From Bacillota bacterium (lineage in GTDB: Bacteria; Bacillota; Dehalobacteriia; UBA4068; UBA4997), in the NCBI GenBank assembly GCA_036677375.1, contig JAVBWO010000020.1, positions 26,960 to 90,959 on the forward strand: a DNA stretch of 64,000 nt, in the 5' to 3' direction. Under the pieces are notes generated by a model. That model ran no database searches and was not told the origin of the DNA. It saw only the letters and a list, made by a program, of their open reading frames with translations. Below, one piece after another: positions 2,489 through 64,000 of this stretch. Position numbers and translations under genes: made by a program. The number at the start of each line of letters is the position of its first letter. Within the stretch, counting starts at the first letter, position 1.

Positions 2489-4058
2489 GAAACCGATCAT
2501 CAGTATCCGCTGGAAACTCTTTGTTTATCTGGCGGCTTTTGTCGGGGTCACGCTGATTCTTTTATGGCTGTTTCAGGTGGTATTTTTAGAAAATTTTTAT
2601 CAGAAAATCAAAATCGCAAGTATGCAAGAGGTCGCGTTCACCATCGTTAAAAATATCGATAGCGACGACCTTTCCGCCGTCATAGAAGAAAGCGCCCACG
2701 AAAATGATGTTTGCATCCGCATTGTAGATGTAAACGGTGCGGATTTCTATTCTTTAGACAGCATTCCCAGTTGTTCCATTCATAAAATGAGCAGAAGACG
2801 ATTGATTGAGCTTTATGCTTTGGCGGAAGAAAACGGCGGTAGGCCGTTGCAGTTTTTATCGAACAAATCTGCTTTTGCCGGCAACGGGTTGGATCAGTCT
2901 CCGGCAATCAATGCTTCCAAGGAAATGCTTCCCCCCAAAGATCCTGGAAACGATCCAAATAACGATACTGTGACAGAAAATTTTTCCAGGGGAGCGGCGC
3001 CGAATGGAGTTGCGCGCTGGCCGGGGCAAGAAATGAAAAATGGCTTCCGGAGTATGATCTATGGTATACTGATCAATAGTACGGCCAATGGGAAACTGCT
3101 GCTTCTCTTGGATACCACCATTACACCTTTAGGAGCTACGGCGGATATCCTTCGGGTGGAACTGATTTACATCGTTGTTATCCTGTTGCTTTTATCAGGA
3201 ATTCTTTCCCTTATCTTATCAAGAAAAATTTCTTCTCCTATCATGAAAATCAATGATCAGGCAAAGGAGCTGGCATTGGGCAATTATAACGCTTCTTTCA
3301 ATGGTGCGGGTTACCGGGAGGTTTCTCAGCTCAGCGATACGCTGAACTATGCGGCAAAAGAGCTTTCCCGGGTGGAAGAACTGCGGCGGGAGCTTCTTGC
3401 GAACATTTCCCATGACTTACGGACGCCGCTGACCATGATCACCGGATATGGTGAAGTCATGCGGGATATCCCCGGCGAGAATACACCGGAAAATGTCCAG
3501 ATCATCATTGATGAAGGGAAGAGGCTGACCGATCTGGTCAATTCCCTATTGGACATCTCCAAGCTGCAATCTGGCACTCAGGAGCTGCATCAGACAACTT
3601 TTAATCTGACGGCAAGCATCCGGGAGATCCTGAAGCGGTATCGCAAGCTGATGGAGCAGGAGGGATATGACATCCAATTTCAGCATGGGGAAGACGTTTT
3701 TGTTTATGCCGATGAAATCAAGATCTCGCAAGTTATCTATAATCTCATCAACAATGCTGTAAACTACACCGGTGAGGACAAGAAGGTCATGATCTGTCAA
3801 ACAATAGAAAGCGGTAAAGTAAAACTTGCCATCAGTGACACGGGCCAAGGCATAGCTCCGGAGGAATTAAAATACATTTGGGAACGTTACTATAAAATAG
3901 ATAAGGTGCATAAACGTTCTGTCATTGGGACAGGCTTAGGCCTTTCTATTGTCAAAGGCATCATGCAATTGCACGGGGGCGAATATGGCGTAGAAAGCAC
4001 TCCCGGGCAGGGCAGTACCTTTTGGTTTTCTTTAAAGACATGTCAAGCAGCAAAGTAG
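2478..4058 (+). CDS. sensor histidine kinase (two TM helices, HAMP, HisKA, HATPase_c)
   Basis: H-box ANISHDLRTPLT and ATP-lid motifs (DTGQGI, GTGLGLSIV). Two hydrophobic helices flank a roughly 150-aa extracytoplasmic loop. It is translationally coupled to the regulator. Confidence 0.85.
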   Translation: MKHKKPIISIRWKLFVYLAAFVGVTLILLWLFQVVFLENFYQKIKIASMQEVAFTIVKNIDSDDLSAVIEESAHENDVCIRIVDVNGADFYSLDSIPSCSIHKMSRRRLIELYALAEENGGRPLQFLSNKSAFAGNGLDQSPAINASKEMLPPKDPGNDPNNDTVTENFSRGAAPNGVARWPGQEMKNGFRSMIYGILINSTANGKLLLLLDTTITPLGATADILRVELIYIVVILLLLSGILSLILSRKISSPIMKINDQAKELALGNYNASFNGAGYREVSQLSDTLNYAAKELSRVEELRRELLANISHDLRTPLTMITGYGEVMRDIPGENTPENVQIIIDEGKRLTDLVNSLLDISKLQSGTQELHQTTFNLTASIREILKRYRKLMEQEGYDIQFQHGEDVFVYADEIKISQVIYNLINNAVNYTGEDKKVMICQTIESGKVKLAISDTGQGIAPEELKYIWERYYKIDKVHKRSVIGTGLGLSIVKGIMQLHGGEYGVESTPGQGSTFWFSLKTCQAAK

Positions 4059-4199
4059 CTTAGTCCGCTGTGTAAGTTGCTTACGAGAGCTTACAACTCC
4101 CGTAAACTCTTTGCCTGTTAGGTATCTGCCATTTGATAACATATGAAAAATTCTTGCCGGCAGGCGAAGCTCTGAACGCTTCCGGCTCATGGAGGATTT

Positions 4200-5612
4200 A
4201 TGCTGTTTTCCAGTACGCCTTTTCTTTTTCTGTTTTTGCCTACAGTGCTTTTTATTTATTATGTCTTTTTCTTAAAGAATCTCCCACTGAAAAATGTTTT
4301 CTTATTAATTGCAAGCTTGCTTTTTTATGCCTGGGGGGAACCAAGATTTGTCTTGGTGATGATGCTTTCCATTATAGTGAACTATGGCTTCGGTGTATTG
4401 GTCGGCCGAAGCCGGCGGCGCTTGTGGCTCATCTTGATGCTCAGCTTTAACCTGGGCATCCTTTTCATTTTTAAATATCTGCTTTTTACCATAGGCAACC
4501 TGAACGGCTTGTTTGGTTTTGCACTGCCTATGCCGGATATCGTGCTGCCCATCGGGATCTCCTTTTTCACTTTCCAGGCAGTTTCCTATGTGCTGGATGT
4601 TTACCGCGGCAGAGTGGAGGTACAAAAAAATCCTCTGTATGTAGGACTGTATATTGCCTTTTTCCCTCAGTTAATTGCGGGGCCTATCGTTCGCTATGCC
4701 ACCATTGCGGATCAGATCGAGAACCGGCACGAGAATTTCAGTGATTTTTCTTCCGGGGTATGCCGTTTTATCCTTGGTTTAAGTAAAAAAGTATTGATTG
4801 CCAACAATCTTGCCCTGGTGGCGGATAAGGCTTTCAATACGCCGTCGTCTGAACTGAGCGTGGCCTTTGCCTGGCTTGGCATTGTAGGTTATACGCTACA
4901 GATTTTTTTTGATTTTTCCGGTTATTCCGATATGGCGATCGGTTTGGGCCGGATGTTTGGCTTTCATTTTGAAGAGAACTTTAATCATCCTTATATCGCC
5001 AAGTCGGTTTCAGAGTTTTGGCGGCGCTGGCATATTTCTTTGGGTACCTGGTTTCGGGATTACTTATACTTTCCCTTAGGCGGCAGCCGGGTGAAGAGCC
5101 GCGGCAGGTTGGCCTTCAATCTTTTCGTGGTATGGTTTTTGACCGGCTTCTGGCATGGCGCCAACTGGACCTTTGTTTGCTGGGGCCTGCTTTATTTTGT
5201 TTTTATCACTTTGGAAAAATTGGGTGGTTTCGAAAAGCGTTTTGCCAAATGGACCTGGCTCAAACATATTTATGTATTATTTGTAGTGATGATGGGCTGG
5301 GTACTCTTCCGGGCGGCGGATCTTTCCGCAGCCGTAGCTTATTTCGGAACTTTGTTCCATATAAATGGGAACATTGCAATCAATGATCTTTTTATTCTCT
5401 ATTTTCGAGAGAACATCTTCTACTATGCGGCGGGGATTTTATTTTGCATGCCTGTTGTTTCTTGGCTTGCGACTAAATGCGGGGGAGTATCCCGCACATG
5501 GAGAAATATTTATTACGTGCTGCGGCCGGTGATTTATATTGCTCTTTTCTTCCTGGCCCTTTCTTTTATCGTGAAGGACGCCTATAACCCCTTTATCTAT
5601 TTTAATTTCTAG
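4200..5612 (+). CDS. MBOAT-family membrane-bound O-acyltransferase (DltB/AlgI-like)
   Basis: Polytopic membrane protein with MBOAT signatures (conserved His in ...WHISLGTWFRDYLYFPLGGSR..., FWHGANW). RBS GGAGG 6 nt upstream of the ATG. Confidence 0.8.
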   Translation: MLFSSTPFLFLFLPTVLFIYYVFFLKNLPLKNVFLLIASLLFYAWGEPRFVLVMMLSIIVNYGFGVLVGRSRRRLWLILMLSFNLGILFIFKYLLFTIGNLNGLFGFALPMPDIVLPIGISFFTFQAVSYVLDVYRGRVEVQKNPLYVGLYIAFFPQLIAGPIVRYATIADQIENRHENFSDFSSGVCRFILGLSKKVLIANNLALVADKAFNTPSSELSVAFAWLGIVGYTLQIFFDFSGYSDMAIGLGRMFGFHFEENFNHPYIAKSVSEFWRRWHISLGTWFRDYLYFPLGGSRVKSRGRLAFNLFVVWFLTGFWHGANWTFVCWGLLYFVFITLEKLGGFEKRFAKWTWLKHIYVLFVVMMGWVLFRAADLSAAVAYFGTLFHINGNIAINDLFILYFRENIFYYAAGILFCMPVVSWLATKCGGVSRTWRNIYYVLRPVIYIALFFLALSFIVKDAYNPFIYFNF

Positions 5613-5623
5613 AGGTGATATTT

Positions 5624-6796
5624 TTGAAGCTGAATTCTGCTGCGGTAAAATGGATCGGGGTCATTTTTATCGCCATCCTTTGCCTCTTTGGAATCACCAC
5701 GACAGGAGGCGTCATTCAGGATCTTACAGACGACTCCACGGCTTTTGTGTTAGATGATATGGAAACTATGTTTAACGACAATGTTTTCTTAAAAGAAAAG
5801 CTGGTATCTTATAACGGAGGCTTCCGGCGTCTCATCGGGCAAAAAGTGGTGCGGGATGCCGACCCCAATAATATGATCATCAAAACGGGAGATGGCAGCC
5901 TTACTTCTATCATGTGGAAATATGATCTCCAGCCCAAAGCGTCGGCGGTTATTAGCTTCAAGGAATTTTTAGACAAAGAAAACATGCCGTTTCTGTATGT
6001 AATGACGCCGTATAAAATCATCAGTGGCTATACGGAGCTTCCTACAGGCATTAAGGATTATTCCAATGAAGACGCTGGTGAATTTCTGGCTTATCTGAAG
6101 GAAGCCTCGGTGGATTATATGGATTTGCGGCAGGATCTCGTGGCGGATCACAAAGATCTCAAAGGTTTGTTTTTCCGGACGGATCACCATTGGCAGACCA
6201 AGACCGCTTTTTGGGCTTTTTCCAAGGTAGCTGCTGTTTTGTCGGATCAATATGGTTTTGATATGGACAAAGATCATTTAGATCTGTCGCAATATACCAT
6301 TTCCTCCTATGAAAAATCCTATCTGGGCTCTCAGGGGCGCCGGGTGGGGCAGCTTTATATTGGGCTGGACGATTATGATTTTATTGAACCCAATTTTGCT
6401 ACCGATCTTTCTGTTACCATCCATAAAGAGGACGGCAGCGTCCGGGTGCAGGAAGGTGATTTTAACCAGGCTCTTATTTATGCCCCTCTGCGGGATATGA
6501 CGGCTCCGCCGTCTACCAACCATTATGCCAGCTATTTTGGGGGAGATTATCCGGAAGTGATCATTCAAAACCATAATGTCGAAAACGGCAAGCTTTTGAT
6601 TATAAAAGATTCCTTTGCCTTGCCGTTTGCCGCTTTTCTTGCTACCGTTACAGAAGAGATTCATATGATCGATTTACGTTACTTCACAAAGGAGAGCCTG
6701 TGTGATTATATCCGCGATTATCAACCGGATATGGTAATGGTTATGTATAATCCATCCAGTCTGAGCGCACAGGGCATGTTTCATTTTGGCACCTGA
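5624..6796 (+). CDS. DHHW-family protein (extracytoplasmic partner of AlgI/DltB-type MBOAT)
   Basis: Contains the literal DHHW motif (FFRTDHHWQTK). N-terminal signal/anchor helix. It sits immediately downstream of the MBOAT gene, the typical pairing. Start ambiguous (GTG 5615 / TTG 5624). Confidence 0.65.
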   Translation: MKLNSAAVKWIGVIFIAILCLFGITTTGGVIQDLTDDSTAFVLDDMETMFNDNVFLKEKLVSYNGGFRRLIGQKVVRDADPNNMIIKTGDGSLTSIMWKYDLQPKASAVISFKEFLDKENMPFLYVMTPYKIISGYTELPTGIKDYSNEDAGEFLAYLKEASVDYMDLRQDLVADHKDLKGLFFRTDHHWQTKTAFWAFSKVAAVLSDQYGFDMDKDHLDLSQYTISSYEKSYLGSQGRRVGQLYIGLDDYDFIEPNFATDLSVTIHKEDGSVRVQEGDFNQALIYAPLRDMTAPPSTNHYASYFGGDYPEVIIQNHNVENGKLLIIKDSFALPFAAFLATVTEEIHMIDLRYFTKESLCDYIRDYQPDMVMVMYNPSSLSAQGMFHFGT

Positions 6797-17052: not shown

Positions 17053-17529
17053 ATGTTTACCTATATTTTATACGGGCTTGCGGGTATCGGACTTGCGATA
17101 TCATTTTATAAAGACCGCAACAAGACTAAAATGGCATTGAGAAAGGCATGGAAATCCTTTGAGAACATCCTGCCTCAGTTTTTGTCCATTTTAATTATCA
17201 TAGGTCTTGCTCTGGCTATTTTGAGCCCGGAGACCATTACGAATCTTCTCGGAACTCGTTCCGGTGTATGGGGAATGTTGGCAGCCGCAGTTGTCGGGTC
17301 AATTACGCTGATACCAGGATTTGTCGCTTTTCCTTTGGCTGCCGCGCTTTTGATAAACGGAGCCGGATACATGCAGATTGCGGCATTCGTTTCCACGCTG
17401 ATGATGGTTGGAATAGTGACGCTGCCCCTTGAGATTAAGACCTTTGGAAAGCGCGCGGCAATTATCCGGAATACTGCGGCTTTTGTGTTTTCTTTGATCG
17501 TTGCGTTTGTGATTGGGGTGGTGCTGTGA
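17053..17529 (+). CDS. permease subunit, N-terminal half of a split DUF318/ArsP-like permease
   Basis: Four TM helices. It overlaps the next gene by 4 nt (ATGA). Confidence 0.45.
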   Translation: MFTYILYGLAGIGLAISFYKDRNKTKMALRKAWKSFENILPQFLSILIIIGLALAILSPETITNLLGTRSGVWGMLAAAVVGSITLIPGFVAFPLAAALLINGAGYMQIAAFVSTLMMVGIVTLPLEIKTFGKRAAIIRNTAAFVFSLIVAFVIGVVL

Positions 17530-18056
17530 TAAAGGCCTTTATGAAGCGCTACCGGATGCTATTGCTGCTGATTCTTACAAACATCGTGATCAGCTTATTA
17601 TTGCCGGATATCGGGCTTAGTTCCGTAAAAATTACCTTGCAGAGCTTTGTGGAAATGATATCAGTCATTCCGCCGATTTTTATATTGCTGGGTTTATTGG
17701 ATGTATGGGTAGACCGGGCGACCATGATGAAATATACTGGAAAAGGCTCCGGTATCAAAGGAGTACTTATTGCGTTTTTCCTTGGCTCTGCCGCTGCCGG
17801 TCCGCTTTATGCTGCGTTTCCGGTTGCAGGGGTAATGTTAAAAAAAGGCAGCAGTCTGTTTCATGTCTTTATTTTCATTGGCGCATGGTCAACCACCAAA
17901 ATTCCAATGCTTACTTTTGAAGCGGCCAATCTGGGCTTTACCTTCACGTTAACCCGTCTGGCTCTTAGCATAGTTGGTATTTTGATTATCGCGGCTACTA
18001 CGGAGAAAGCACTCAATCAAGATGGGCAAAAGCAAATATATGAACTTAATCAATAA
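17526..18056 (+). CDS. permease subunit, C-terminal half of the split permease
   Basis: Four to five TM helices. It is translationally coupled to the upstream half. Confidence 0.45.
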   Translation: MIKAFMKRYRMLLLLILTNIVISLLLPDIGLSSVKITLQSFVEMISVIPPIFILLGLLDVWVDRATMMKYTGKGSGIKGVLIAFFLGSAAAGPLYAAFPVAGVMLKKGSSLFHVFIFIGAWSTTKIPMLTFEAANLGFTFTLTRLALSIVGILIIAATTEKALNQDGQKQIYELNQ

Positions 18057-18313
18057 CCAAGACCCATTGCCATACTCACCTAGCATATCATATACCCCAT
18101 AATGCGCAAGGTTGATTTTCAGAGCATTCATAATGTAAGTAAAAACTCCGAGAGGCTATTTGTCAAATGAATCTGCAACTAGCTGATTAGCTTTTTCAGA
18201 TTGCGTTGAAAAACTTTATCCCGACAACGAGTACGGGGATTGGTTGGCCATTTAAAAAATAAAGTAGCGTCCGCACATCAAGAATTGATGATCATTTAAG
18301 ATATACGAAGTAG

Positions 18314-18352
18314 AAACAAACCCGTCCGGATTTCTTCGGACGGGTTTGTTTG
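18314..18352 (+). terminator. rho-independent terminator
   Basis: AAACAAACCCGTCCG-GATTTCTTC-GGACGGGTTTGTTT followed by GATTGCGATGTTTT. Confidence 0.7.
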
Positions 18353-18560
18353 ATTGCGATGTTTTGGATAAAAGCAATAGAGCGGTTCAAAGATAGCCAT
18401 GTTAAATAAACATAAATAATTTTATCTTGATGGTAAATTATTTACAAATACGATAAAAAAAATTATTAATGAAATTTCTTGCTTGAATTTATATTATCGT
18501 TATGCTACATTTAGTATATCGGTGGCTAGTAGGATAACAAGAAAAAAAGGAGGCAGTATT

Positions 18561-19586
18561 ATGATAAAAAAAATAATGGTTTTGTGTGTTAGTGCAAGCT
18601 TATTACTTTTAATGGTTGGTTGCAGTAAAGACTTGGCAAAGACTTCAACGCAAACATCTGATAATGAGGAAGTGAACCTCAATGTTGCAGTTGAATATAC
18701 TGATCACGCAGCCGCTTTTTATTATGCCCAGGGGAAAAATCTTTTTTCTGATGCTGGAATTAAAATTAATGATGTCAAAGTGTATGCCAGCGGTGTAGGT
18801 GTGGCTGCGGCCTTCACAAAAGGGGGATTCGATGTCAGCTATATGTGTTTGGTTCCTGCAATTTTTACTTATGCCAATGGGGGCGTACCGATCAAAATCA
18901 TTGCCGGTACCCATAAGAACGGTTATGCGCTGGTAGTAAACAGTGCTAGAATTAAAGAATTAAGCGACCTGGAGAAGAGTGGAATTAAAATAGCCAATGG
19001 TCCCCAGGGAACCCCGACAGACTTTTTACAAATGCTTCTGATCGAAAAAGAAAATCTGGATTCCGAAAAAATTATGGCCAATACGGTGCGGATGAATGCG
19101 GCGAAACAGCTTATGGCCTTGCGCAACGGTAAAGTTGATGCCGTCTTTGTTCCCGAACATTTTGCAACCCTAGCCGCTTCGTTTTCCGGAATGACTATGC
19201 TGCTTAAGAGTTCCGATATTTGGCCAGATATGCAGGGAAGCGTCCTGGTGGTGACTGAGGATTTATTAAAGAATCAGCCGGAGACTGTAGAAAAATTGCA
19301 AGAGATTAATAGGCGGAGCATTCAGCTTATGAATGAGGATCCACAGGACGCTGCTGCCATTGTATCTCAGAATTTAAACATCAACCAGACCGCGGTCAAA
19401 GAAGAGACGCAAAGCCCGGAAGCAAACTTGGAAGTTACCCCGGAAATTGCTGGCGCATCAATGAATCATTTAAAAATGACGCCAGAAATCAGCATCGAAG
19501 AGGTGCAGACCATAATCGACAAGATGTACGCTTTGGGATATCTAACGAAATCCTTTGACGCTAAAGAGATCATGGCAGTTGATTAG
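18561..19586 (+). CDS. ABC transporter substrate-binding lipoprotein (NMT1/SsuA/TauA-like)
   Basis: RBS AAAGGAGG, ATG at 18561. Lipoprotein signal with lipobox LMVGC. Periplasmic-binding fold typical of aliphatic sulfonate/nitrate-type binders. Confidence 0.7.
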   Translation: MIKKIMVLCVSASLLLLMVGCSKDLAKTSTQTSDNEEVNLNVAVEYTDHAAAFYYAQGKNLFSDAGIKINDVKVYASGVGVAAAFTKGGFDVSYMCLVPAIFTYANGGVPIKIIAGTHKNGYALVVNSARIKELSDLEKSGIKIANGPQGTPTDFLQMLLIEKENLDSEKIMANTVRMNAAKQLMALRNGKVDAVFVPEHFATLAASFSGMTMLLKSSDIWPDMQGSVLVVTEDLLKNQPETVEKLQEINRRSIQLMNEDPQDAAAIVSQNLNINQTAVKEETQSPEANLEVTPEIAGASMNHLKMTPEISIEEVQTIIDKMYALGYLTKSFDAKEIMAVD

Positions 19587-20361
19587 GGATAAAGGTGCTG
19601 ATTTGGAGATGAAGCCAAAATTATTGAAAAATAATTTATTATATCTTTTGCCTATTGCATTATTTTTTGCTTTATGGGAAATAGCGGGACAGACAGCCCA
19701 GACACCTTTATTTCCGCCCTTGAGCAAAGTTGTCGGAGAATTTGGTTCTCTTCTAAGTAACGGAATACTTCTCAAAAGTCTGGGAGCAAGTTTTGGGAGA
19801 GTTCTCATCGGCTATATTCTTGGGAGTTTGGCCGGCTTAATTGTTGGTACGTTGATGGGGGTAAATAAAGTCGTAGAACGCAGTTTAAGACCATTGATCA
19901 GTATTTTATTCCCAATTCCGACTTTAGGGTGGCTACCGTTATTAATGCTGTGGATCGGCATTAACGAGGCTTTGCCTGTCATTCTGATTTTTATCTGCGC
20001 TTTCTTCCCCGTAGCCTACAATACGCTAACCGGAATCAAAGAGGTGAAAGGGGAATATATCAAAGCCGCCCGCACGCTCGGGGCATCTTCTTGGTATATT
20101 CTTTGCCATGTCATACTGCCGATGGCTTCTCCCAATATTTTTACCGGTCTGCGCCTGGAGGCGGGGATGGTTTGGCGGACGGTCATTGCAGCCGAGATGT
20201 TTGCTATACCCACAGGGATTGGCGCCCTGTTGATGAATGCGGAAAGCTTGATCCGGGTAGATGTCATTATGGTCTGCTTAGTCGTACTATCTTTGATGTG
20301 TACCTTTTTTGAGCGTTTATTCCTGTGGCTGGAAAACAGAATAACCGGTGCCTGGAGGTAA
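19555..20361 (+). CDS. ABC transporter permease (SsuC/TauC-like, BPD_transp_1)
   Basis: Six TM helices with an EAA-like loop. Start uncertain (TTG 19555 overlapping the upstream gene, or ATG 19609). Confidence 0.75.
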   Translation: MTLKRSWQLIRDKGADLEMKPKLLKNNLLYLLPIALFFALWEIAGQTAQTPLFPPLSKVVGEFGSLLSNGILLKSLGASFGRVLIGYILGSLAGLIVGTLMGVNKVVERSLRPLISILFPIPTLGWLPLLMLWIGINEALPVILIFICAFFPVAYNTLTGIKEVKGEYIKAARTLGASSWYILCHVILPMASPNIFTGLRLEAGMVWRTVIAAEMFAIPTGIGALLMNAESLIRVDVIMVCLVVLSLMCTFFERLFLWLENRITGAWR

Positions 20362-20363
20362 AA

Positions 20364-21074
20364 ATGTCAACTATTCGTCTGCAAAATATTTCCACACCAC
20401 ATTGCTTGAAGAATGTAAATTTAGATATTGAAGCAGGGGAACTTGTGATAGTCTTAGGCTTTACCGGCGCTGGCAAGAGCACGCTGCTTAATGTAATCGC
20501 AGGATTGACGGAATATACGGGAGACGTGTATATCAATCAGCAAAACATGAACAATATCCCTACGGAAAGACGTAATGTGGGTTATCTGCTACAGGACATT
20601 TATCTGTTTCCCCATTGCAATACATTTGATAATGTTGCCTTTGGCTTGCGTGCCAGTGGTTACCCTTGTGACAGAATAAGAGATAAAGTTGAAGAAACAC
20701 TGGATCTTCTTCATATAGAACATTTAAAAAACCGTTATCCGAAGGATCTTAGCGGTGGGGAAAAACAAAGAATAGGCCTGGCGCGTTCCATTATTATGGA
20801 ACCAAAGATTTTACTTTTGGATGAACCGCTGGCCAGCCTGGATCCATCTACCGCTAATAGCATCCGGCAGGAATTGAAAATACTACAGAATCGTTTGAAG
20901 CTAACAATGCTCTATGTCACTCATGATTTTGCCGAGGCCCGCGAGCTTGCAGATAGAATTATTGTGATTGCAGAAGGTCAAATTAAGCAATCAGGGTCTG
21001 TTTGGGATATTTTTAATGAGCCGGTTGCGGAAATACAGGAATTAATATCTGTTGCTCATTTTAACAAATTGTAA
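20364..21074 (+). CDS. ABC transporter ATP-binding protein
   Basis: Walker A GFTGAGKST, signature LSGGEKQRIGLAR, Walker B LLLDEPLASLD. RBS GGAGG 7 nt upstream of the ATG at 20364. Confidence 0.85.
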   Translation: MSTIRLQNISTPHCLKNVNLDIEAGELVIVLGFTGAGKSTLLNVIAGLTEYTGDVYINQQNMNNIPTERRNVGYLLQDIYLFPHCNTFDNVAFGLRASGYPCDRIRDKVEETLDLLHIEHLKNRYPKDLSGGEKQRIGLARSIIMEPKILLLDEPLASLDPSTANSIRQELKILQNRLKLTMLYVTHDFAEARELADRIIVIAEGQIKQSGSVWDIFNEPVAEIQELISVAHFNKL

Positions 21075-21128
21075 AGATGATATAACCCCCAAATATATAA
21101 AAGAATATTTCTAAAGGGAGTTTATACT

Positions 21129-21893
21129 ATGAAAAAAAGAGATAAAAATTTATTTTTTGATCGTTTGCAAAGAGAGTTTACCCAGTTGGTTGATGAATTT
21201 CAGCTCAGGCACGCTGAGGTAAAGGTAAAGGCATCATTACTGAGTCCGGAAGATGCCATAGGAGCTACAAAACGCCAAGATTATGTGATTCTAAAAGGAA
21301 AGGAACGTTTGCTGCAGTCTTCTGTGATGGGTTGCAAGGGACAAGCCTTTACAGGGTCGCAAGGGAATTTTGCAGGAACGTTGGCAGAGGTGTTGGCCTT
21401 GCCTTTGACGGATGATTTTCAGCGAGCTGTGTATATTGCCACACTTAATGCAGTTGTGTGTTATTCGGGGAGGGTAAATCAGACAGTTCACTGCCGTAAC
21501 CAAGGGCCGGAACTATGTGCCCGACAAATAACGGCATACTTGAGGGAAAATTATGGCGATCCACATATTCTGATGATTGGCTATCAGCCTTCGCTGGCCG
21601 AAGCCCTGCATAATGCCGGGTTCTCATTGATTGTGCTTGACTTGGATCCGGATAATATAGGCAAGACCAAAAATGGTGTTCTTATCAGGAATGGTGCTGA
21701 AAGCTTAGACGAGTGTATTGCAGCAAGTGATATTATCTTTGCTACCGGCAGCACTATTTGCAATGCTACGATTGATGCGTTGTACAATGCAGACATACCG
21801 CTCGTCTTATTTGGCACAACCGGAGCCGGTGCCGCAGCTTTACTGAGGATAACCAGGTTTTGTCCGGAAGCTACTAGTGGCAGGTGTGATTAA
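21129..21893 (+). CDS. DUF4213/DUF364-family protein (Rossmann-like, putative metal-chelation domain) associated with the ABC importer
   Basis: Size and sequence pattern match DUF364 proteins, which commonly accompany ABC transporters in anaerobes. Assigned on family resemblance only. Confidence 0.4.
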   Translation: MKKRDKNLFFDRLQREFTQLVDEFQLRHAEVKVKASLLSPEDAIGATKRQDYVILKGKERLLQSSVMGCKGQAFTGSQGNFAGTLAEVLALPLTDDFQRAVYIATLNAVVCYSGRVNQTVHCRNQGPELCARQITAYLRENYGDPHILMIGYQPSLAEALHNAGFSLIVLDLDPDNIGKTKNGVLIRNGAESLDECIAASDIIFATGSTICNATIDALYNADIPLVLFGTTGAGAAALLRITRFCPEATSGRCD

Positions 21894-22053
21894 TTTAATT
21901 ACTAGAACAAAAAAGATAGAAAGAAAATGAATACCGCATTTGAAGTTAGAATCGTAATATAGAAACCAGCAATCTGCGGCCAGCAATAGATTCATCATTA
22001 AGAAAAAGAAAATATACATCTACAGTTGATCATGGTTGAGCAAGCAATTTAAA

Positions 22054-22097
22054 CGGGCAATTACAAAAATGTAATTGCCCGTTCTTATTATTTTATT
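22054..22097. terminator. bidirectional terminator between convergent DUF364 (+) and peroxiredoxin (-) genes
   Basis: ACGGGCAATTACA-AAAA-TGTAATTGCCCGT, with a T-run on the + side and an A/U-rich run on the - side. The prx stop codon (22093-22095) abuts the hairpin. Confidence 0.65.
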
Positions 22098-22689
22098 CAT
22101 TTTTAGGAGGTTGCCATACCTGCCATACTTTTCCAGCTAGATCTGGGGATGGTTTGAGTGTTGGGGCTCCTTCTACCCATCCCGACGGCATCACTTCACC
22201 GGTTTTTTGATGGTGCTGGTAAGCTTTGATTTGGCGGATCAGTTCTGCAGGATTCCGGCCTACCGGCGGACTGAGTATTTCCGCCGCTTGAATGATTCCT
22301 TCAGGGTCAATTAAAAATCTTCCACGAATATTGACGCCCGCTTCTTCATTGTAAACCTCATAAAGTTTACCGATGGCGCCAGTTTGGTCGGAAATCATTG
22401 GAAATGGGATATCATGACCTACCATTTTACTAAGTTCAATTTCATTCCAAATTTTATGCGAGAAAGCACTGTCAGTACTGACAGAGAGCACTTCAACACC
22501 AAGCGCTTGGAGCTTGTCATAGCTAACTGCTATGTGTGAAATTTCCGTAGGTCAAACAAAAGTGAAATCTCCCGGATAGAAACAGAGCACAACCCATTTG
22601 CCACGATAGTCTTCTAAGGATACCTGCTTGATCTGACCTTTGTAAAAAGCTGTTCCCGTGAATGATGGCGCCTTTTTAGTGACTAACAT
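22093..22689 (-). CDS. peroxiredoxin (AhpC/Prx1-type) with in-frame UGA at the peroxidatic cysteine position: candidate selenocysteine-containing peroxiredoxin (PrxU-like)
   Basis: ATG at 22689 with RBS AAGGAG 9 nt upstream. Translation [45 protein letters not shown]-[TGA][35 protein letters not shown]... runs into the annotated 132-aa ORF in the same frame. The TGA falls exactly at the invariant Cys of the FTFVCPTE motif. The usual resolving Cys (GEVCP) is Met here (GEVMP). Confidence 0.7.
22518..22534 (-). ncRNA. candidate SECIS-like hairpin downstream of the UGA
   Basis: mRNA CAUAGC-AGUUA-GCUAUG (6-bp stem, 5-nt loop containing GU) begins 17 nt 3' of the UGA. A second palindrome CCAAGCGCUUGG lies a further 10 nt downstream. 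Confidence 0.35.
22552..22554 (-). other. in-frame TGA (putative Sec codon, codon 46 of the peroxiredoxin)
   Basis: Plus-strand TCA at 22552-22554 is TGA on the minus strand. Both flanking frames are open and conserved. Confidence 0.65.
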
Positions 22690-22911
22690 AATAAGCCGCT
22701 CCTTTCTTTCTATTGATACCTACTACCAATATATTACATTTTAATTGTCTTAAAGTCAAGTTTGGTCGAATTTCATGGACACATTATGATCTTTCGCCAA
22801 GATACGGCAGATCGTCTTGTAAAACTTGTACTCAGCCAATGGCAGTATTTGCACAGGGAATGATCTTGTATCTACGCTTAAAATGAGCAAATGACATGCC
22901 AAATCTTAAGC

Positions 22912-23106: not shown

Positions 23107-23898
23107 TTATACTGAATACGAAAGAGTAGAAACGCCAATGGCCATATCATAGAGGGCAGTCAAATGCTGAAAATTCGGGCGTCCCACAAGGTCCATCAAA
23201 TATGCCGTTTCATCCGCATCCTCTTTTCGGTGGTGGTTGAGTGCTTTGATGAACCCATCAGCTTTATATTTCCCGATGCCATGGCCATAATAGAGGCCGC
23301 CTCCCATGTCGATCACGTTTTCTCCCTGCCATTGGGGAGTGAGAGGATCGACATCAGGATTGGCAAAATACAGGCGGTCGCCGGGCAAAAAATCCTTTGC
23401 CTGGCGCATGAAACCGACCTCCCTGAGCTCTTTTGCAATCCGGTGCCAGTTCATCAAATAAATATCGGGGAACATTTTATTATAAAAATCTTCCGGGAAA
23501 ACTTCCAGCAGTGCTTTATAATAAACGATAAGCATTGCGGTGGCGCATTCCGTACCATACAACCAACTGTTTACAAAAATGTCTCTTACTGCATCGCTGG
23601 GCTTGACGCCTTCCTTAAGCGCAAATCCGCCATCGTCCATGCGCACCCAATAATTAGGGTTGCAAATTGAATCACGAAACGTTTTAAAAGACATTTTGCT
23701 TCGGTAAAGGGAGTCCGCGGCATTGATAATCTCCCGGCGCAGCTTAAGTTCAAATTTCAGCTGCCTGAGGGAATCATACAAGTAGACTTCTTCACTGGAT
23801 TCCAATATGTTGATCATGACCCTTTCCACACTGCCTGGGGGGTATTCATTCAGAAGAGATGCAACCCCCGGCGCTTGATTCTGTATTTTAATCATCAC
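23107..23898 (-). CDS. tgl: protein-glutamine gamma-glutamyltransferase (spore coat transglutaminase)
   Basis: Co-linear similarity to B. subtilis Tgl (for example ECATAMLIVYYKALLEVF vs ECATAIVIIYYLALIDTI; PDVDPLTPQWQGENVI vs PEFDPQKAQWRGENVI). Length 263 aa vs 245 aa. Confidence 0.85.
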   Translation of the reverse strand: MMIKIQNQAPGVASLLNEYPPGSVERVMINILESSEEVYLYDSLRQLKFELKLRREIINAADSLYRSKMSFKTFRDSICNPNYWVRMDDGGFALKEGVKPSDAVRDIFVNSWLYGTECATAMLIVYYKALLEVFPEDFYNKMFPDIYLMNWHRIAKELREVGFMRQAKDFLPGDRLYFANPDVDPLTPQWQGENVIDMGGGLYYGHGIGKYKADGFIKALNHHRKEDADETAYLMDLVGRPNFQHLTALYDMAIGVSTLSYSV

Positions 23899-24878
23899 AC
23901 CACCTCAAAATCGGATTTTGCGATACGAACCTGTTCCGGCAACTGTTTTTGCATAAATTTTTCCCAGGAACGTTTTCGGTGATGGATTTGATAGGAGTAT
24001 GCCGAAAGAATTTCCCGTTCCTCTTGCGAAGTTTCGCGAAATTGATTCAAACATAAGATTTCTTTTTCAGTTAAAGGCTGTAACGGTTTCCTATCCTTAG
24101 GGGATATTTTTTTATACAGGTACTTGGCTTCCAAATCAATGCGCAAAGGTTCAGGATCACTGGTAAGCTGAAAATGCTCGCCGGTCAAGTATAAAAACGG
24201 ACGGTTCTCGCTCAGCCATGCCCGATAATTTTTATACAGCTTTCGTTTGCCGAGGTCTCTGTCCGTTTCTTTTGGCAATGGCAAGTGCAGGAGGCGGCAG
24301 GCCAGTTCTACATCTTTCTGTTTGTCGGAAAGAAGGTATTTTGCAATCAGCGTTACCTTTTTGGGGTCATAAGCCTGGAAAAAACTCCAGACCAGATCAT
24401 GAATGAAAAGCCCTTTTCGATTACGTTTAAAAATCAAATCCGCAACAGCGGGCAAAACCGTCTTGTCTTCATAAGTTCTGATGAGAAGCGCCGCCAAAGC
24501 ATCCAGCACCGCATCATATGGGTCATCATGCGGGCCCTCCCAGCGCACACCTGTATTAAACATCCATTTGAATACCTGATGCTTCATATGGCTGTTTTGT
24601 GGCGGCAACCGGTCTAGGTGAACGGCCAAATGATGATGATTTAATTTTTTGGCGCATAATTGCAGCGCTATGATATTTCGTGAATTTAAGTTCTCATACA
24701 GATTCAATGCTTCGATTTCAGGCATTAGGATAAATAAGCTTGGAAACGGGAGCTTTTCCTTGTTAAGATAATGAAAAGCTTTTTGTCTGTTTTGCTCCGC
24801 CAATTCATGGAATGTCCGTCTAAAGCGGTCTACGTTTTGACTCAGCCATATGCGGTCTAGACTGTTCCAATTCATCAC
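23895..24878 (-). CDS. hypothetical protein (327 aa), translationally coupled upstream of tgl
   Basis: Long ORF whose stop overlaps the tgl start (ATGA). Basic/aromatic-rich. No recognisable motifs. Confidence 0.5.
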   Translation of the reverse strand: MMNWNSLDRIWLSQNVDRFRRTFHELAEQNRQKAFHYLNKEKLPFPSLFILMPEIEALNLYENLNSRNIIALQLCAKKLNHHHLAVHLDRLPPQNSHMKHQVFKWMFNTGVRWEGPHDDPYDAVLDALAALLIRTYEDKTVLPAVADLIFKRNRKGLFIHDLVWSFFQAYDPKKVTLIAKYLLSDKQKDVELACRLLHLPLPKETDRDLGKRKLYKNYRAWLSENRPFLYLTGEHFQLTSDPEPLRIDLEAKYLYKKISPKDRKPLQPLTEKEILCLNQFRETSQEEREILSAYSYQIHHRKRSWEKFMQKQLPEQVRIAKSDFEVV

Positions 24879-25255: not shown

Positions 25256-26044
25256 GTGTTTAATCAAAAAATATTGAGGATTCTGTTGGCAGGAGTGTTT
25301 TTATTTACAGTCATGACTGTAGCAGGTTGTGGTGATAAAGAGAAAATCACGCAGCTTTCTCAACTGGACGGTAAAGAATTCGCCGTTCCCACAGGGACAG
25401 CAGCAGATCAGCTGGTACTGACCAAATTCCCCGATGCCACCTTCCAGTACTATAACAGTGTGCTTGACGCCTGTCTGGCTGTAAAATCCGGGAAAGCCGA
25501 CGCGGCTGCTTATGATGAACCGATTTTAAAAAATATCGCCGCCAAAAATGACGGTCTTGTGGTTTTACCGGATATGATTACGACAGATCAGTATGGTTTT
25601 GCCGTTCGACCGGATAACCAGGAATTAAAGGCGGCAATGGATCAAGTGATCAATGAACTGAAAAATAACGGCACCTACGATGATATGTTAAAACGCTGGC
25701 TGCCCCAAGAAGGTTCGCCGGCGGCAATGCCGGAAATTGCCCTGAATGGCAATAAAGGCGTTCTGAAGTTTGGAACGGCGGCAGTGACGGAACCGTTTTC
25801 TTTTGTGGACGCCAACCGGAAAGTAGTCGGCCTTGATATTGAAATGGCGACATACATTGCTCAGAAATTAGATATGCAGCTGGAAGTTGTCAATATGGAT
25901 TTTGGCGGCATGATCCCGGCTTTAATATCGGGTAAGGTTGATATGATCGGGGCCTGTCTTACCATTACGGAAGAGAGAGCGCAAAGTGTTTTATTCTCCG
26001 AGCCCTACTATACAGGCGGTATTGCCGCCTTAGTCCATGAATAA
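25256..26044 (+). CDS. solute-binding lipoprotein of the SBP_bac_3 (polar amino-acid binding) family with circularly permuted lobe order
   Basis: RBS AAGGAG 7 nt upstream of the GTG. Signal peptide plus lipobox VAGC. Residues ~35-150 match the C-terminal lobe of GlnH-type binders (…NGTYDDMLKRWL). Residues ~150-262 match the N-terminal lobe (LKFGT…FSFVD…GLDIEMA…IAQKL…DMIGA.LTIT.ER…FSEPYY). No ABC permease or ATPase is adjacent. Confidence 0.6.
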   Translation: MFNQKILRILLAGVFLFTVMTVAGCGDKEKITQLSQLDGKEFAVPTGTAADQLVLTKFPDATFQYYNSVLDACLAVKSGKADAAAYDEPILKNIAAKNDGLVVLPDMITTDQYGFAVRPDNQELKAAMDQVINELKNNGTYDDMLKRWLPQEGSPAAMPEIALNGNKGVLKFGTAAVTEPFSFVDANRKVVGLDIEMATYIAQKLDMQLEVVNMDFGGMIPALISGKVDMIGACLTITEERAQSVLFSEPYYTGGIAALVHE

Positions 26045-42092: not shown

Positions 42093-45000
42093 TTAGCCGA
42101 TCATGCTCTGCAGAAGTAGCGCAATCATTTTAGCCGCCTCGGCGCGGGTGGCATTTGCCATAGGGGCAAAGCTGCCGTTGCTGTTGCCGGAGATGATACC
42201 TGCTTTCTGCATCATCGTTACCGCGTTACCGGCATAGGAAGCAATGGCTTTGTTGTCGCTAAAGGTTACGGCGCTCTTGGTTTCAGGCAGGGTCGCATTG
42301 GCGATCTTATCGGCATACCGCGAGATCATCACCGCGATATCCTGACGGGTAATGGATGCGTTAGGATCGAATTTGCCGTCCATGCCGTTAGCCACGCCCT
42401 TTTCATACGCCCATTGCACTGCCGCAAAATACCAGGCGGCAGTGGGGACGTCGGTAAAGGAGGAAGTGTGATATCCTGTCAGGTCGTCACCGGAGAGGTT
42501 GGCTAAGATGGTGGCCAGCTGGGCCCGGGTGATATTGTCGTTGGGATCAAATTTGCCGTCCGTGCCGTTGATGATGCCGCGCGCCGCCAGAAAATCCACA
42601 TAATCCTGGTACCAACCGGAAACATCGGAGAAGCTTACCTTGTGATAGGCCACCGCGTAGATGGAAAAGTGCGTTACGCTAAAGGTCACCATGCCGGTTT
42701 TGGCGTCATAGACGCAGTTGGGTACCATGACAAGCTCGCCGCCGGGAGTGATATAATAGATCACGATCTGATCCGTGTCCTCGCCATCTTCCGGGGTATA
42801 AGGCAGGCTGACTGTCACGGCGCCGCCGCCCAAGTTCGAGAGGGTCTTATTACCGCTGGTTACGGTAAAATCATAAACCGGCCTGTTGCCGATTTGCGCC
42901 TGCGCTTCTTTGGAAAGGGTCAATCTGTCAACGGCCGCGACGGTTATGTCGATATCGCTTGTGGTCTGACTGTTCCATTGTTGAAGCGTCTTAGTGTCAA
43001 AGGTCAGGATCCCGACGGGGGTGGAAAGCTTGAGCTGGTTGATGAAGCTATCCACCAGCGACCCGAGGGCACCGGCGGGAATGCGCAATGTAAAGCCGGA
43101 GGCCGTATCCGCTCCCGCGATATCCACTTCAAAGATGATATCATCAACGCCGAATGCCGCAGTTTTCTCGGCTGCTTCTTTTATGGCTTGGGTGATTAGT
43201 TTCTCTGTCAGTGCAAAGTCAATTGTCCCGGATTGATTCAGTACGGCGTCGATAGTAACCGTTACGGTGTTTGGAGCTGTATGCGTATCATCTGTCTCCG
43301 GGGTGGCGGAACCGTCGCCCAGGGAAGAGCCGTTGCTTTTGCCCCGGATGGTCAGGATACCGTCGGCGGTGACGATCTCATAATTGTCCGCCGTTGCCGC
43401 GCCCGTTGTTATCACGATGCTGTAGGTACCTGCGGTATTGCTGCCGGTCAGTACGCTGTTGTCGGTATTTCGTATCTCCATGGTAAAGGGTGTGGTCACC
43501 GTGAGCAGATCTTTGGTATCGCCGCTTAAGAATCCGCTGTATGCGAGTTCCGGAACCGGCAGGGCCGCGCCTGTGGTGATGATTACGTCTTTCGCCTTGA
43601 TGGTGAGTACTTTTTTCGATACAGTAAGATTGACGCTGCCCGAACTGTTGCTGTAATCCGTTTCCGTAGCGCTGTCGGCCGTAAACTGGGCGCCCACGGT
43701 GTAGGCGCTGCTCTTAAAGGGTAGGCTGTTCTTGTCAAGAGTGATGGAGGCTGTATGATTGGAGATGGTGGCCGGGTTGCCGACATTGACGCCGTCCAAG
43801 GTAAACTGGACCGTTCCGGCTAACGCTGCCTCATCGTCGCTTCCCACATGGGCTGTGAGGACAGCGCTCTCGCCGTAGATGAGGGACGTGTCGTTTGCCG
43901 TTACCGTCGTGACGGTAGCTTTTTTATCCAAAAGGCTTACGCCGGCGGTTTGATCGGTTGCTGTATAGGCTTTATAATTTGCTGTTTCGGTTGGGATGTT
44001 TGCCGTAAAGGTTGCTTCCTGGCCGGAGGAGTAGGTCGCTGGCATGGTATAAATCGCTGTATAGACTCCCGGCGTCGCGGATGCGGACAAAGCCGCTTTC
44101 AAGGTTGCCCCTGTGGCGGCGAGGTTGATTTCGCCAACAGAGGGGAACCCGTCGGCAGGTGAGCCGGAAGGCGGAGCCACCGTTACGGTAGCCTTCACAT
44201 CCTGGCCGTACATTTGCCCGCTGGGGTGATCGGTGCTCACTGTAATGACTGGGTTAGCTTTCTTGATGATGAATGATACCCGATTGGTCGCTGAAGTCGT
44301 CAGCTCGCATGCCTCCGCAACGGCTTCCATATAATAGCTCCCCGCATTTTTCGGCGCGGACCCTTCCAAAACAGAGCCGCTGTTGGACGGTGTGGTTTTG
44401 GTATATTGCTGGTCAATATAATAGATCAATTGCACCTCGCTGACGCCCGGAATCCCGGCGGCATTATCCGTAACGGTACCGGCATAATTGATGACGCTGC
44501 CGTTATAGGTGTGTTCTTCGTCTGTGATGGAAAGCATCCTGACCCCAAAATTACCATATATCGTATCGTCTATGGTAAGGCTTGGTACCGAGTTAATGGG
44601 CGTAGACAGGGAAACTTCTTTAAACCAGCCTAAAAAGGGCTTGCCATTGGTTCCGGTCGCTGTTTCCGGCAAGGCTACCGAGCCGTCCGAGTTGGAATAG
44701 ACGACAATCGGAGCTGCGCTTCCGGAAAGAGTTAGTTTGTAAACGGCAAAATGTGTCGAATCCGCGAAAACCGGGGTCGTACCTTGAGCCCAAATACCGC
44801 TGTTGGGTTCCGCGCCGTTTGTCGTATTGAATATCCAGGCCATTTCCACCGTAGCAAGCTCCGCCCCAGTTTTCGCCGTCGCTTCGCTGGAGCCGGGTAC
44901 GGCGCTGCCGAGATAATAACAGTTTGTTACGGTGGCGTTATTGGACGGTTCCGTTTCATCCGCATAGATGTCGCCCGCCACATTGCCCGCGTTGCCGTCA

Positions 45001-62418: not shown

Positions 62419-62892
62419 TTATTGTAATCTTATTGTTGCCAGAATAAAATCCATGACCGTTTTCTCAATGGATAAAAAAGCATTTTGCAGTTTCTCGCTC
62501 AGCCGGTCGCCGTAGCCGATATGCGCCGCTTCAATTCCGATGACGAAGCCTGCTACCTGTTTTTGATAGATCAATAATAAATGCAACAAGCTTTGCTGAT
62601 GGGCGGAAATATGCTTTTGTTTTAGATGCGTGGCCTCTTGGAGTGGCATAAAGGTTACGGCGCCGGGGGAAATACCGAGACAAGCGGCGTCCAGGATCAA
62701 TAAAAAATCTCCGTCCTCGATTTGGCTCAAGGCATAGTCGGCGTCCGTCTCCGCCAGAATCACCGCGATATTTTCCTGTTTCAGTCGGGGCGAGAGGGCT
62801 TCCAGTATTCTGATACCGATGGCGTCATCCCCCATGATACGGTTACCGATGGCGATACACTTTACGGACATGTCAAACCACCCTGATTTCAA
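62419..62892 (-). CDS. [NiFe]-hydrogenase maturation endopeptidase (HyaD/HybD/HycI family)
   Basis: MSVKCIAIGNRIMGDDAIGIRI... matches the GNxxxxDDGxG family motif. It overlaps the large-subunit 3' end by 20 nt. Confidence 0.8.
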   Translation of the reverse strand: MKSGWFDMSVKCIAIGNRIMGDDAIGIRILEALSPRLKQENIAVILAETDADYALSQIEDGDFLLILDAACLGISPGAVTFMPLQEATHLKQKHISAHQQSLLHLLLIYQKQVAGFVIGIEAAHIGYGDRLSEKLQNAFLSIEKTVMDFILATIRLQ

Positions 62893-64000
62893 AGGGTTGA
62901 CAGGTATCGCTTAAGACATGGGTCGCGCAAGAAACACAAGGGTCAAAAGACCGTACGATTCTGCCAATTTCCATGGGATTTTTGATATCGGCAAGAGGCG
63001 TGCCGATGAGAGCGCTTTCCGCAACTCCTTTGACGCCGAATTCGTCTTCCGGTGATAAGTTCCAGGTGGAAGGGCTGATGATACTGTAATGTTGAATGGC
63101 GTGATCTTCTATTTTGATCCAATGCCCCAAGGCGCCTCGTGTGGTATCAGTCAAACCTTTGCCCATGACGTTTTGATCAAAAGTGTAATTTGACAGCTGC
63201 GACGGCTCCGGTTTGATTCTTTCCAGCAGTCCCTGCATAATATCAGTAATTTTTTTGGCTTCCAGAACCCTGGCGATGGTTCTGTCCATAGCGGAGACCC
63301 TTGGGGGATAGTTGCCGCTCAAGATCATTCTGGCCAACGGTCCCACCTCCATGGCAATGCCGTCGTAGCGGGGCGCTTTGATAAAGCTGTAGCCATCTGT
63401 TTTTATGTCTTCTTCCTGAGCAGGAACGGCACCGGGCGATTCCGGCCGATACCATGCGTGATAAACGCTTTCGGTTATTCTAGCGGGTGAAAACTCCCGC
63501 CGGATGCCGTTTTCCATAACGGCGGGGCAGAGGTAAAACAGCTCTTTTGCTTGGTAAGTGTCAAATAAACCGTAGGACATCAGGTTACCTTTGCCGGCGC
63601 CCATCTCAAAACAGTCGCTGTAATAATCGGCAATGGTGTAGACGTCCGGGATCATAACATTGGTGATAAAATGGTTGATGGCACTTAGGATAGATTTGAT
63701 TTCTATGAAGATGGAGGCGTCTAGGTTCACCGTTACGCCTCCAATAAAGACCCCGTGATGGTGAGGCGCCTTTCCCCCCAGAGTAGCTAGCATTTCATGG
63801 GCCTTGCGGCTGAATTCCAAGGATTGCCTGTAATGCAAGGCAATCTTGTCCTCAAGGGGTCGGGGCAGCCTGTAGGCGAGAGGGTTTACCTGAAAAATGG
63901 GTTGGATCTCGGGACCCCGCACATAATCCGGCAAGGTATATTGATAAAAGTGGCGCAGGTGATTTTGGAGAAATTCACAGCCGTGAATATAATCCCGGAT
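62873..64000 (-). CDS. [NiFe]-hydrogenase large subunit, N-terminus outside the window
   Basis: C-terminal DPCVSCATHV (DPCxxCxxH Ni-ligand/processing motif, Cys not Sec). The frame stays open to nt 64000 (...FLQNHLRHFYQYTLPDYVRGPEIQ...). Confidence 0.8.
   Translation of the reverse strand: MRDYIHGCEFLQNHLRHFYQYTLPDYVRGPEIQPIFQVNPLAYRLPRPLEDKIALHYRQSLEFSRKAHEMLATLGGKAPHHHGVFIGGVTVNLDASIFIEIKSILSAINHFITNVMIPDVYTIADYYSDCFEMGAGKGNLMSYGLFDTYQAKELFYLCPAVMENGIRREFSPARITESVYHAWYRPESPGAVPAQEEDIKTDGYSFIKAPRYDGIAMEVGPLARMILSGNYPPRVSAMDRTIARVLEAKKITDIMQGLLERIKPEPSQLSNYTFDQNVMGKGLTDTTRGALGHWIKIEDHAIQHYSIISPSTWNLSPEDEFGVKGVAESALIGTPLADIKNPMEIGRIVRSFDPCVSCATHVLSDTCQPFEIRVV

Follow-up and report, generated by a model that had tools for sequence, protein, structure and literature searches.

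A 64-kb stretch of DNA (64,000 nt, in the following called the window) contains a peroxiredoxin gene that is, with high confidence, a genuine prxU selenoprotein gene, in which an in-frame UGA codon is read as selenocysteine (Sec). The residual doubt is limited to whether this UGA is still decoded as Sec in the host organism. According to PMC9312934 and PMC13188914, PrxU is the selenocysteine peroxiredoxin of Eubacterium (Peptoclostridium) acidaminophilum, and the Sec-peroxiredoxin (TxxU) is one of the prokaryotic selenoproteins with experimental verification (Sohling et al. 2001, Biol Chem 382:979). Knowledge of Sec-peroxiredoxins dates from 2001, and they occur widely in anaerobes and metagenomes (PMC9312934, PMC13188914, PMC1088965); a PxxxTxxU motif has been described for them (PMC13188914), and a dedicated NCBI equivalog HMM exists for PrxU (NF040737). 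The prxU gene of the window is a further member of this known family and introduces no new principle.

The prxU coding sequence is located on the minus strand (22093..22689) and was delineated by translation together with the matches to NF040737 and Pfam: it comprises 198 codons with one in-frame UGA (Sec46) and ends with a TAA stop. By direct reading we found the ribosome-binding site AAGGAG at 22704..22699 on the same strand, 9 nt ahead of the ATG at 22689, as the original prediction had stated. The claim that the frame continues past the TGA with conserved peroxiredoxin residues proved correct as well, since it begins with MLVTKK and, past the TGA, stays open for 152 codons up to the TAA at 22095..22093. 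All positions and residues named in that prediction were confirmed. Further upstream, a consensus scan yielded a candidate sigma-70 promoter (TTGACT-17 nt-TAATAT, 22731..22759, minus strand), a pattern match only, with a score of 9/12. Past the prxU TAA, at a distance of 10 nt, a 14-bp inverted repeat that contains G+C spans positions 22052..22083 on both strands and is likely to be a bidirectional terminator common to prxU and the convergent DUF364 gene. The repeat was scored on the plus strand; read from the opposite strand, it has an identical stem and a weaker T-tail. Within the window, prxU appears to be monocistronic. The program-made list of open reading frames breaks the prxU frame into ORFs of 45 aa and 132 aa, and the public record for the window holds only the 132-aa ‘redoxin’ fragment (P0009, NCBI). 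The gene is thus probably mis-annotated in its source record.

Profile searches were carried out with a prxU translation in which Cys was put in for the TGA. The product matches the NCBIfam equivalog model NF040737 ‘peroxi_PrxU’ with 322.9 bits (E = 1.3e-96), above the curated cutoff of 270; the runner-up, the AhpC model TIGR03137, yields 200.2 bits and stays under its own cutoff of 272. Pfam assigns the domains AhpC-TSA (E = 2.8e-38) and 1-cysPrx_C (residues 156-188). The nearest solved structures by sequence are those of Salmonella AhpC (PDB 1yep/4ma9, E = 7e-47), which are colinear over residues 2-188. When the protein is aligned to 1yep, the TGA (codon 46; 22552..22554, minus strand) falls on the peroxidatic Cys46 of FTFVCPTE, exactly where it had been predicted, and represents the peroxidatic site of a PxxxTxxU motif composed of P39, T43 and U46. 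Arg122 (22324..22326, minus strand) aligns in the same comparison to the conserved catalytic Arg of AhpC/Prx1, which we take to be R119 in the established AhpC numbering. The C-terminal resolving Cys had been proposed to be replaced by Met (GEVMP), and Met167 of GEVMPSGW (22189..22191, minus strand) indeed lies on the resolving Cys of GEVCPAKW. Among 167 homologous sites, 147 have T, M, I or A at this position and only 7 have C. The marks of a typical 2-Cys AhpC are therefore missing: the score is under the cutoff, the resolving Cys is Met and the peroxidatic codon is UGA. Features of PrxU, namely the model score, the UGA in PxxxTxxU, a SECIS-like hairpin and the absence of a C-terminal resolving Cys, are all present. 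The original view of the locus as an equivalent of PrxU is upheld by the score above the cutoff, by the conservation of the TGA, by the SECIS-like hairpin and by coding evolution on both sides of the TGA.

We compared the TGA site across 162 loci, consisting of 80 species-representative genome loci, 80 metagenome loci and two Logan copies (L001 and L002) among the matches listed. The 80 genome and 80 metagenome loci encode proteins with 61-86% identity to the window gene. TGA occupies the homologous position in 165 of 167 sites in these loci; a Cys codon is found in two (one TGC, one TGT), and TGG in none. Chance cannot account for such agreement. The tblastn query carried Cys at the TGA, so that any ranking bias runs against TGA forms. 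Judged by record title, the listed genome loci come from more than 10 phyla, among them Bacillota, Chloroflexota, Atribacterota, Caldisericales, Actinomycetota, Acidobacteriota, Thermodesulfobacteriota/Deltaproteobacteria, Bacteroidota-like groups, Zixiibacteriota, Calditrichota and Armatimonadota. The best 120 protein homologues show Trp (78), Cys (24) or Arg (1) at the site, and 17 begin just after it. Since the DNA shows TGA and never TGG, the ‘Trp’ is spurious and stems from gene calling under code 4. The possibility that the codon is in fact TGC or TGT had been raised from the start; the identical TGA is present in the two independent Logan read assemblies. Comparison with 27 relatives of the same clade gave pN values of 0.10-0.28 upstream and 0.08-0.25 downstream of the TGA, and pS values of 0.7-1.07, which are saturated, on both sides. 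This pattern of purifying selection on either side of the TGA implies that both halves are maintained as a single protein, and homologues are colinear across the TGA over residues 1-196. Furthermore, the window has 49 open frames with a length of 200 codons or more, and 9 of them end in TGA; TGA is therefore an ordinary stop here, and a code with TGA as a sense codon does not apply.

In bacteria, the short apical hairpin that SelB recognizes carries a G-U in its loop, some 20-30 nt past the UGA, as described for E. coli fdhF and in the bSECIS model. Downstream of the prxU UGA we found a hairpin that looks like such a bacterial SECIS element. It is located at 22518..22534 on the minus strand, corresponding to nt 21-37 counted from the U of UGA, and consists of the arms CAUAGC and GCUAUG around the loop AGUUA. 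The structure has 6 bp, is 17 nt long and begins 17 nt 3′ of the UGA, with G28 and U29 of the loop at 22527..22526. The first 45 nt from the UGA sort into two classes, the clade of the window (29 distinct sequences) and a larger clade (123). For the window clade the consensus is C21 A U A G C26, a loop N G28 U29 N N and G32 C U A U G37; the hairpin is kept in 29 of 29 distinct sequences, and an unguided RNAalifold prediction gives exactly that helix. In this clade 93% of the alignment cells of the helix are paired; displacing the 3′ arm by 1-3 columns lowers the value to 22-39%. Compensatory changes occur at 21:37 (CG, GC, UA), 22:36 (AU, GC, GU) and 27:31 (CG, GC, UG), and the observed covariation score was reached by none of 500 shuffles.

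Several third-codon positions are frozen within the stem, with A at column 24 in 29/29 sequences, C at column 33 in 29/29 and U at column 36 in 28/29; the lone C at column 36 is paired with a compensating G22. All four bases occur at third positions outside the stem (6, 9, 15, 18, 39 and 45). This contrast in codon usage points to selection on the RNA and not on the protein at the frozen positions. Four of the six core stem pairs are invariant and lie within codons for conserved residues (I-A-V-G/S-Y), and conservation of the hairpin must therefore in part be ascribed to the protein level. Taken alone, the hairpin has a calculated energy of −6.9 kcal/mol, and its pair probability is 0.93-1.0 in a 45-nt context but only 0.12-0.23 in a 70-nt context, where competing folds arise. 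Folding of the single sequence over 68 nt after the UGA gave a different minimum-energy structure with a non-significant z of −0.81 and did not single out the hairpin, which is revealed by comparative analysis only. Rfam yielded no match, either with gathering thresholds over the whole window or with E <= 10 over 22400..22700. Bacterial SECIS elements vary too much and are too short to be captured by Rfam models.

The 123 sequences of the larger clade share an 8-bp hairpin at nt 13-32 with a 4-nt loop containing the invariant G22 U23; the proportion of paired cells is 85%, and compensatory changes are seen at four pairs. The loops of the two clades are 6 nt apart and the stems derive from different codons (HIAVGY in the window clade, LxAVAVKY in the larger clade). 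In several genomes (L023, L028, L030, L042 and L054) two prxU paralogues lie 1-5 kb apart, both copies having the active-site TGA and a downstream hairpin of their own. We also compared the Sec types with eight Cys-type homologues, two of which occurred among the scanned loci while six were fetched deliberately. Cys types fold worse over the hairpin stretch (mean −6.8 versus −9.6 kcal/mol, Mann-Whitney p = 0.005), and the loop GU is lost in 3 of 8. A strict comparison of Sec and Cys types, requiring at least 5 contiguous pairs that close a GU loop, was not significant with only 8 Cys forms (Fisher p = 0.16); many hairpins of the larger clade (class B) carry an internal mismatch.

We detected no tRNA, including tRNA-Sec, in the 64-kb window, and no selA, selB or selD among its scanned ORFs; a tblastn search of the window with SelA and SelB from Alkalibacter mobilis likewise gave no hit. 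We infer that the Sec machinery is encoded elsewhere in the host genome. Alkalibacter mobilis (L003, 10001-14251) is the closest named relative among the matches listed, its PrxU being 84% identical, and in this locus as well as on a metagenome contig (L160, about 3130-6322) prxU is directly followed by selA (572 bits) and selB (379 bits). In these two loci a selenoprotein gene is physically linked to the Sec insertion genes. In a MAG of the Desulfitobacteriaceae, prxU is located behind perR, a flavodiiron protein gene and a rubredoxin-fused flavin reductase gene, a context that fits a role of prxU in peroxide or oxygen defence.

A TGA within a reading frame might also result from a nonsense mutation or an assembly error, in which case the locus would be a dead pseudogene or would truly read TGC or TGT. 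The fact that gene callers break the locus into ORFs of 45 aa and 132 aa, and that the public record P0009 is the 132-aa fragment, would suit this explanation. We nevertheless regard it as highly improbable: two independent read assemblies contain the identical TGA, the codon recurs at 165 of 167 homologous sites among the matches listed, the gene has no further stop or frameshift, purifying selection acts on both halves and a conserved hairpin follows downstream. The same two ORFs, both of which appear in the program-made list, could be taken as two separate small genes encoding a 45-aa peptide and a 132-aa protein that starts from GTG 22491. This interpretation is effectively refuted. The 132-aa product would miss the catalytic residue together with half of the thioredoxin fold, the 20-codon stretch from the TGA to GTG 22491 belongs to neither ORF and yet is conserved in frame, and the homologues run colinearly through the TGA over residues 1-196.

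Somewhat less remote, but still improbable, is an intact gene whose UGA is not read as Sec in this organism, either due to suppression by a near-cognate Trp- or Cys-tRNA or because the Sec machinery was lost recently and the product is mostly truncated. In favor of this scenario, genes of the Sec machinery are absent from the 64-kb window, and the lineage is uncharacterized: homologues of the transglutaminase Tgl, encoded close to prxU, place the organism near Oscillospiraceae, Caproiciproducens and Sporobacter, from which the nearest named matches come, but no non-self protein exceeds 72% identity. However, the window has an intact hairpin in which 6 of 6 pairs and the loop GU are preserved, no decay of the gene is seen in comparison with its 84% identical relatives, Trp at the catalytic position would be inactive and other long frames use TGA as a normal stop. 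We therefore retain the assignment as a prxU gene with a Sec-encoding UGA.

The sole cysteine of the prxU product is Cys36 (TGT, 22582..22584, minus strand), which lies in the segment VVLCFYP 10 residues before Sec46 and is a candidate resolving thiol. Its position is occupied by Cys in 77 of 77 TGA-type homologues of the protein list and by Phe in AhpC; the count was made on the protein list and not on the locus set, for which CFYPGDFT was one of the retrieval patterns. Long-form PrxU proteins (about 228-281 aa) bear an N-terminal extension of ~37 residues that contains a Cys in 60 of 63 cases, in a C-x-x-P context such as GCQRP or CVQPAKGPI. This Cys could be a resolving or relay thiol of the long forms. 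The PrxU of the window is a short form of 198 residues that spans positions 38-231 of the 233 positions of NF040737, and it has no such extension because a stop is located 10 codons upstream of the ATG. Short forms, which have neither the C-terminal resolving Cys nor the N-terminal Cys extension, may resolve the selenenic acid via the buried, family-invariant Cys36. We know of no peroxiredoxin subfamily for which a Sec-Cys resolving geometry at position −10 has been described. Whether the short-form clade departs from the textbook cases in both respects, with a SECIS register that lies 6 nt further and was rebuilt and not inherited, and with Cys36 as the resolving residue, is a tentative idea that we consider rather doubtful.

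From the anatomy of the gene and the known bacterial SECIS elements, the following course of events can be proposed. UGA codon 46 would be recoded during translation of the prxU mRNA, when the hairpin with its conserved loop G-U is bound by SelB-GTP-Sec-tRNA(Sec); this complex would then bring Sec into the A site of the ribosome, where it would compete with release factor 2. The Sec46 selenolate is expected to reside in the PxxxTxxU pocket together with Thr43 and Arg122, where it would attack H2O2 or an organic hydroperoxide and be converted to the selenenic acid. As the C-terminal resolving Cys is absent (Met167), the oxidized Sec would have to be recycled by one of two other routes, namely via a selenenylsulfide with Cys36 or by direct reduction through thioredoxin as in 1-Cys enzymes. 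Physiologically, the enzyme would protect an anaerobic, spore-forming, Clostridia-like bacterium against peroxide.

We also inspected the remainder of the window. A scan for other selenoprotein genes with an in-frame TGA within an open frame yielded prxU as the only credible case in the window. Of a [NiFe] hydrogenase large subunit that runs off the end of the window, the C-terminal portion is present (62873-63997, minus strand); its C-terminal motif DPCVSCATH is of the Cys type and not that of a [NiFeSe] selenoprotein. Convergent with prxU, a transporter cluster occupies 17053-21893 on the plus strand, and all its ORFs are intact without in-frame TGA. It contains two half-size ArsP-like permease genes (17053-17529 and 17526-18056) that overlap in GTGA, and furthermore encodes an SsuA/NMT1-like binding protein, an ABC permease, a WtpC-like ATPase and a DUF364 ‘heavy-metal chelation’ protein. 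In NCBIfam, the ABC permease scores highest with SaoP, the permease of the SAO selenoprotein system (152.8 bits versus a cutoff of 295). Membership of these ABC neighbors in the SAO system, suggested by weak likeness to SaoP, SaoX and SaoE, was rejected as the scores are well under the family cutoffs. The paper on the SAO selenoprotein system does not mention PrxU, although the NCBIfam accession numbers are adjacent.

On the other side of prxU, tgl, the gene for a spore-coat transglutaminase, is found at 23107-23898 on the minus strand. The gene for a 327-aa protein without Pfam or NCBIfam match (23895-24878, minus strand) overlaps the start of tgl by 4 nt, and because of this overlap the two are probably co-transcribed; the pair is adjacent in L001, too. 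In a 262-aa ORF at 25256-26044 (plus strand), the matches to amino-acid-binding SBP_bac_3 profiles are permuted: residues 25-149 correspond to profile positions 112-241 and residues 167-260 to positions 23-116. This order could stem from circular permutation, from fused fragments or from partial domains in tandem. The ORF at 42093-47546 (minus strand) is very long with 1817 aa.

Recognition of prxU marks an uncharacterized Clostridia-like anaerobe as a user of selenocysteine with a high-efficiency peroxide scavenger. It is also of value for annotation, as most relatives in the best 120 protein matches are cut at the UGA or mistranslated as Trp. A small mechanistic study could start from the existence of two SECIS registers and from the invariant Cys at −10.

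With the PrxU of E. acidaminophilum, the window protein shares the AhpC/Prx1-type fold, the UGA-encoded peroxidatic Sec in TxxU and the absence of the C-terminal resolving Cys, a likeness judged through the NF040737 model and literature descriptions. It differs within the PrxU family in being a short form that lacks the ~37-residue Cys-bearing N-terminal extension of most long forms. Salmonella AhpC has the same active-site segment FYPxDFTFVxPTE, the catalytic Arg and the C-terminal GEVxPxxW, whereas the window protein has Sec in place of Cys46, Met in place of the Cys165 equivalent and Cys in place of Phe at position 36, and no ahpF adjoins prxU in the window. The absence of a C-terminal resolving Cys and the 1-cysPrx_C match are shared with 1-Cys peroxiredoxins of the Prx6 type, but in sequence the window protein resembles AhpC/Prx1 far more than the Prx6 models: PRK13190/PRK13189-type models reach only 113-127 bits, compared with 200 for AhpC and 323 for PrxU. 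Known bacterial SECIS elements (E. coli fdhF, Moorella thermoacetica fdhA and the bSECIS model of Zhang and Gladyshev) are short hairpins situated just 3′ of the UGA within the coding sequence; their apical loop contains a G-U and lies some 20-25 nt from the UGA. The hairpin of the window likewise lies in the coding sequence 3′ of the UGA and exposes a G-U in its apical loop. The register of this G-U is +28/+29 in the window clade and +22/+23 in the larger PrxU clade, and about +23/+24 in the fdhF SECIS. Other selenoproteins of the peroxiredoxin fold comprise a Prx-like UxxC/UxxU thiol:disulfide oxidoreductase, a UGC-containing Prx-like protein and Prx-SUH (PMC9312934, PMC13188914). They have in common with the window protein a thioredoxin or AhpC-TSA fold and a Sec in a redox motif; their Sec is part of UxxC, UGC or CxxU, whereas that of the window protein is found in TxxU at the canonical peroxidatic site.
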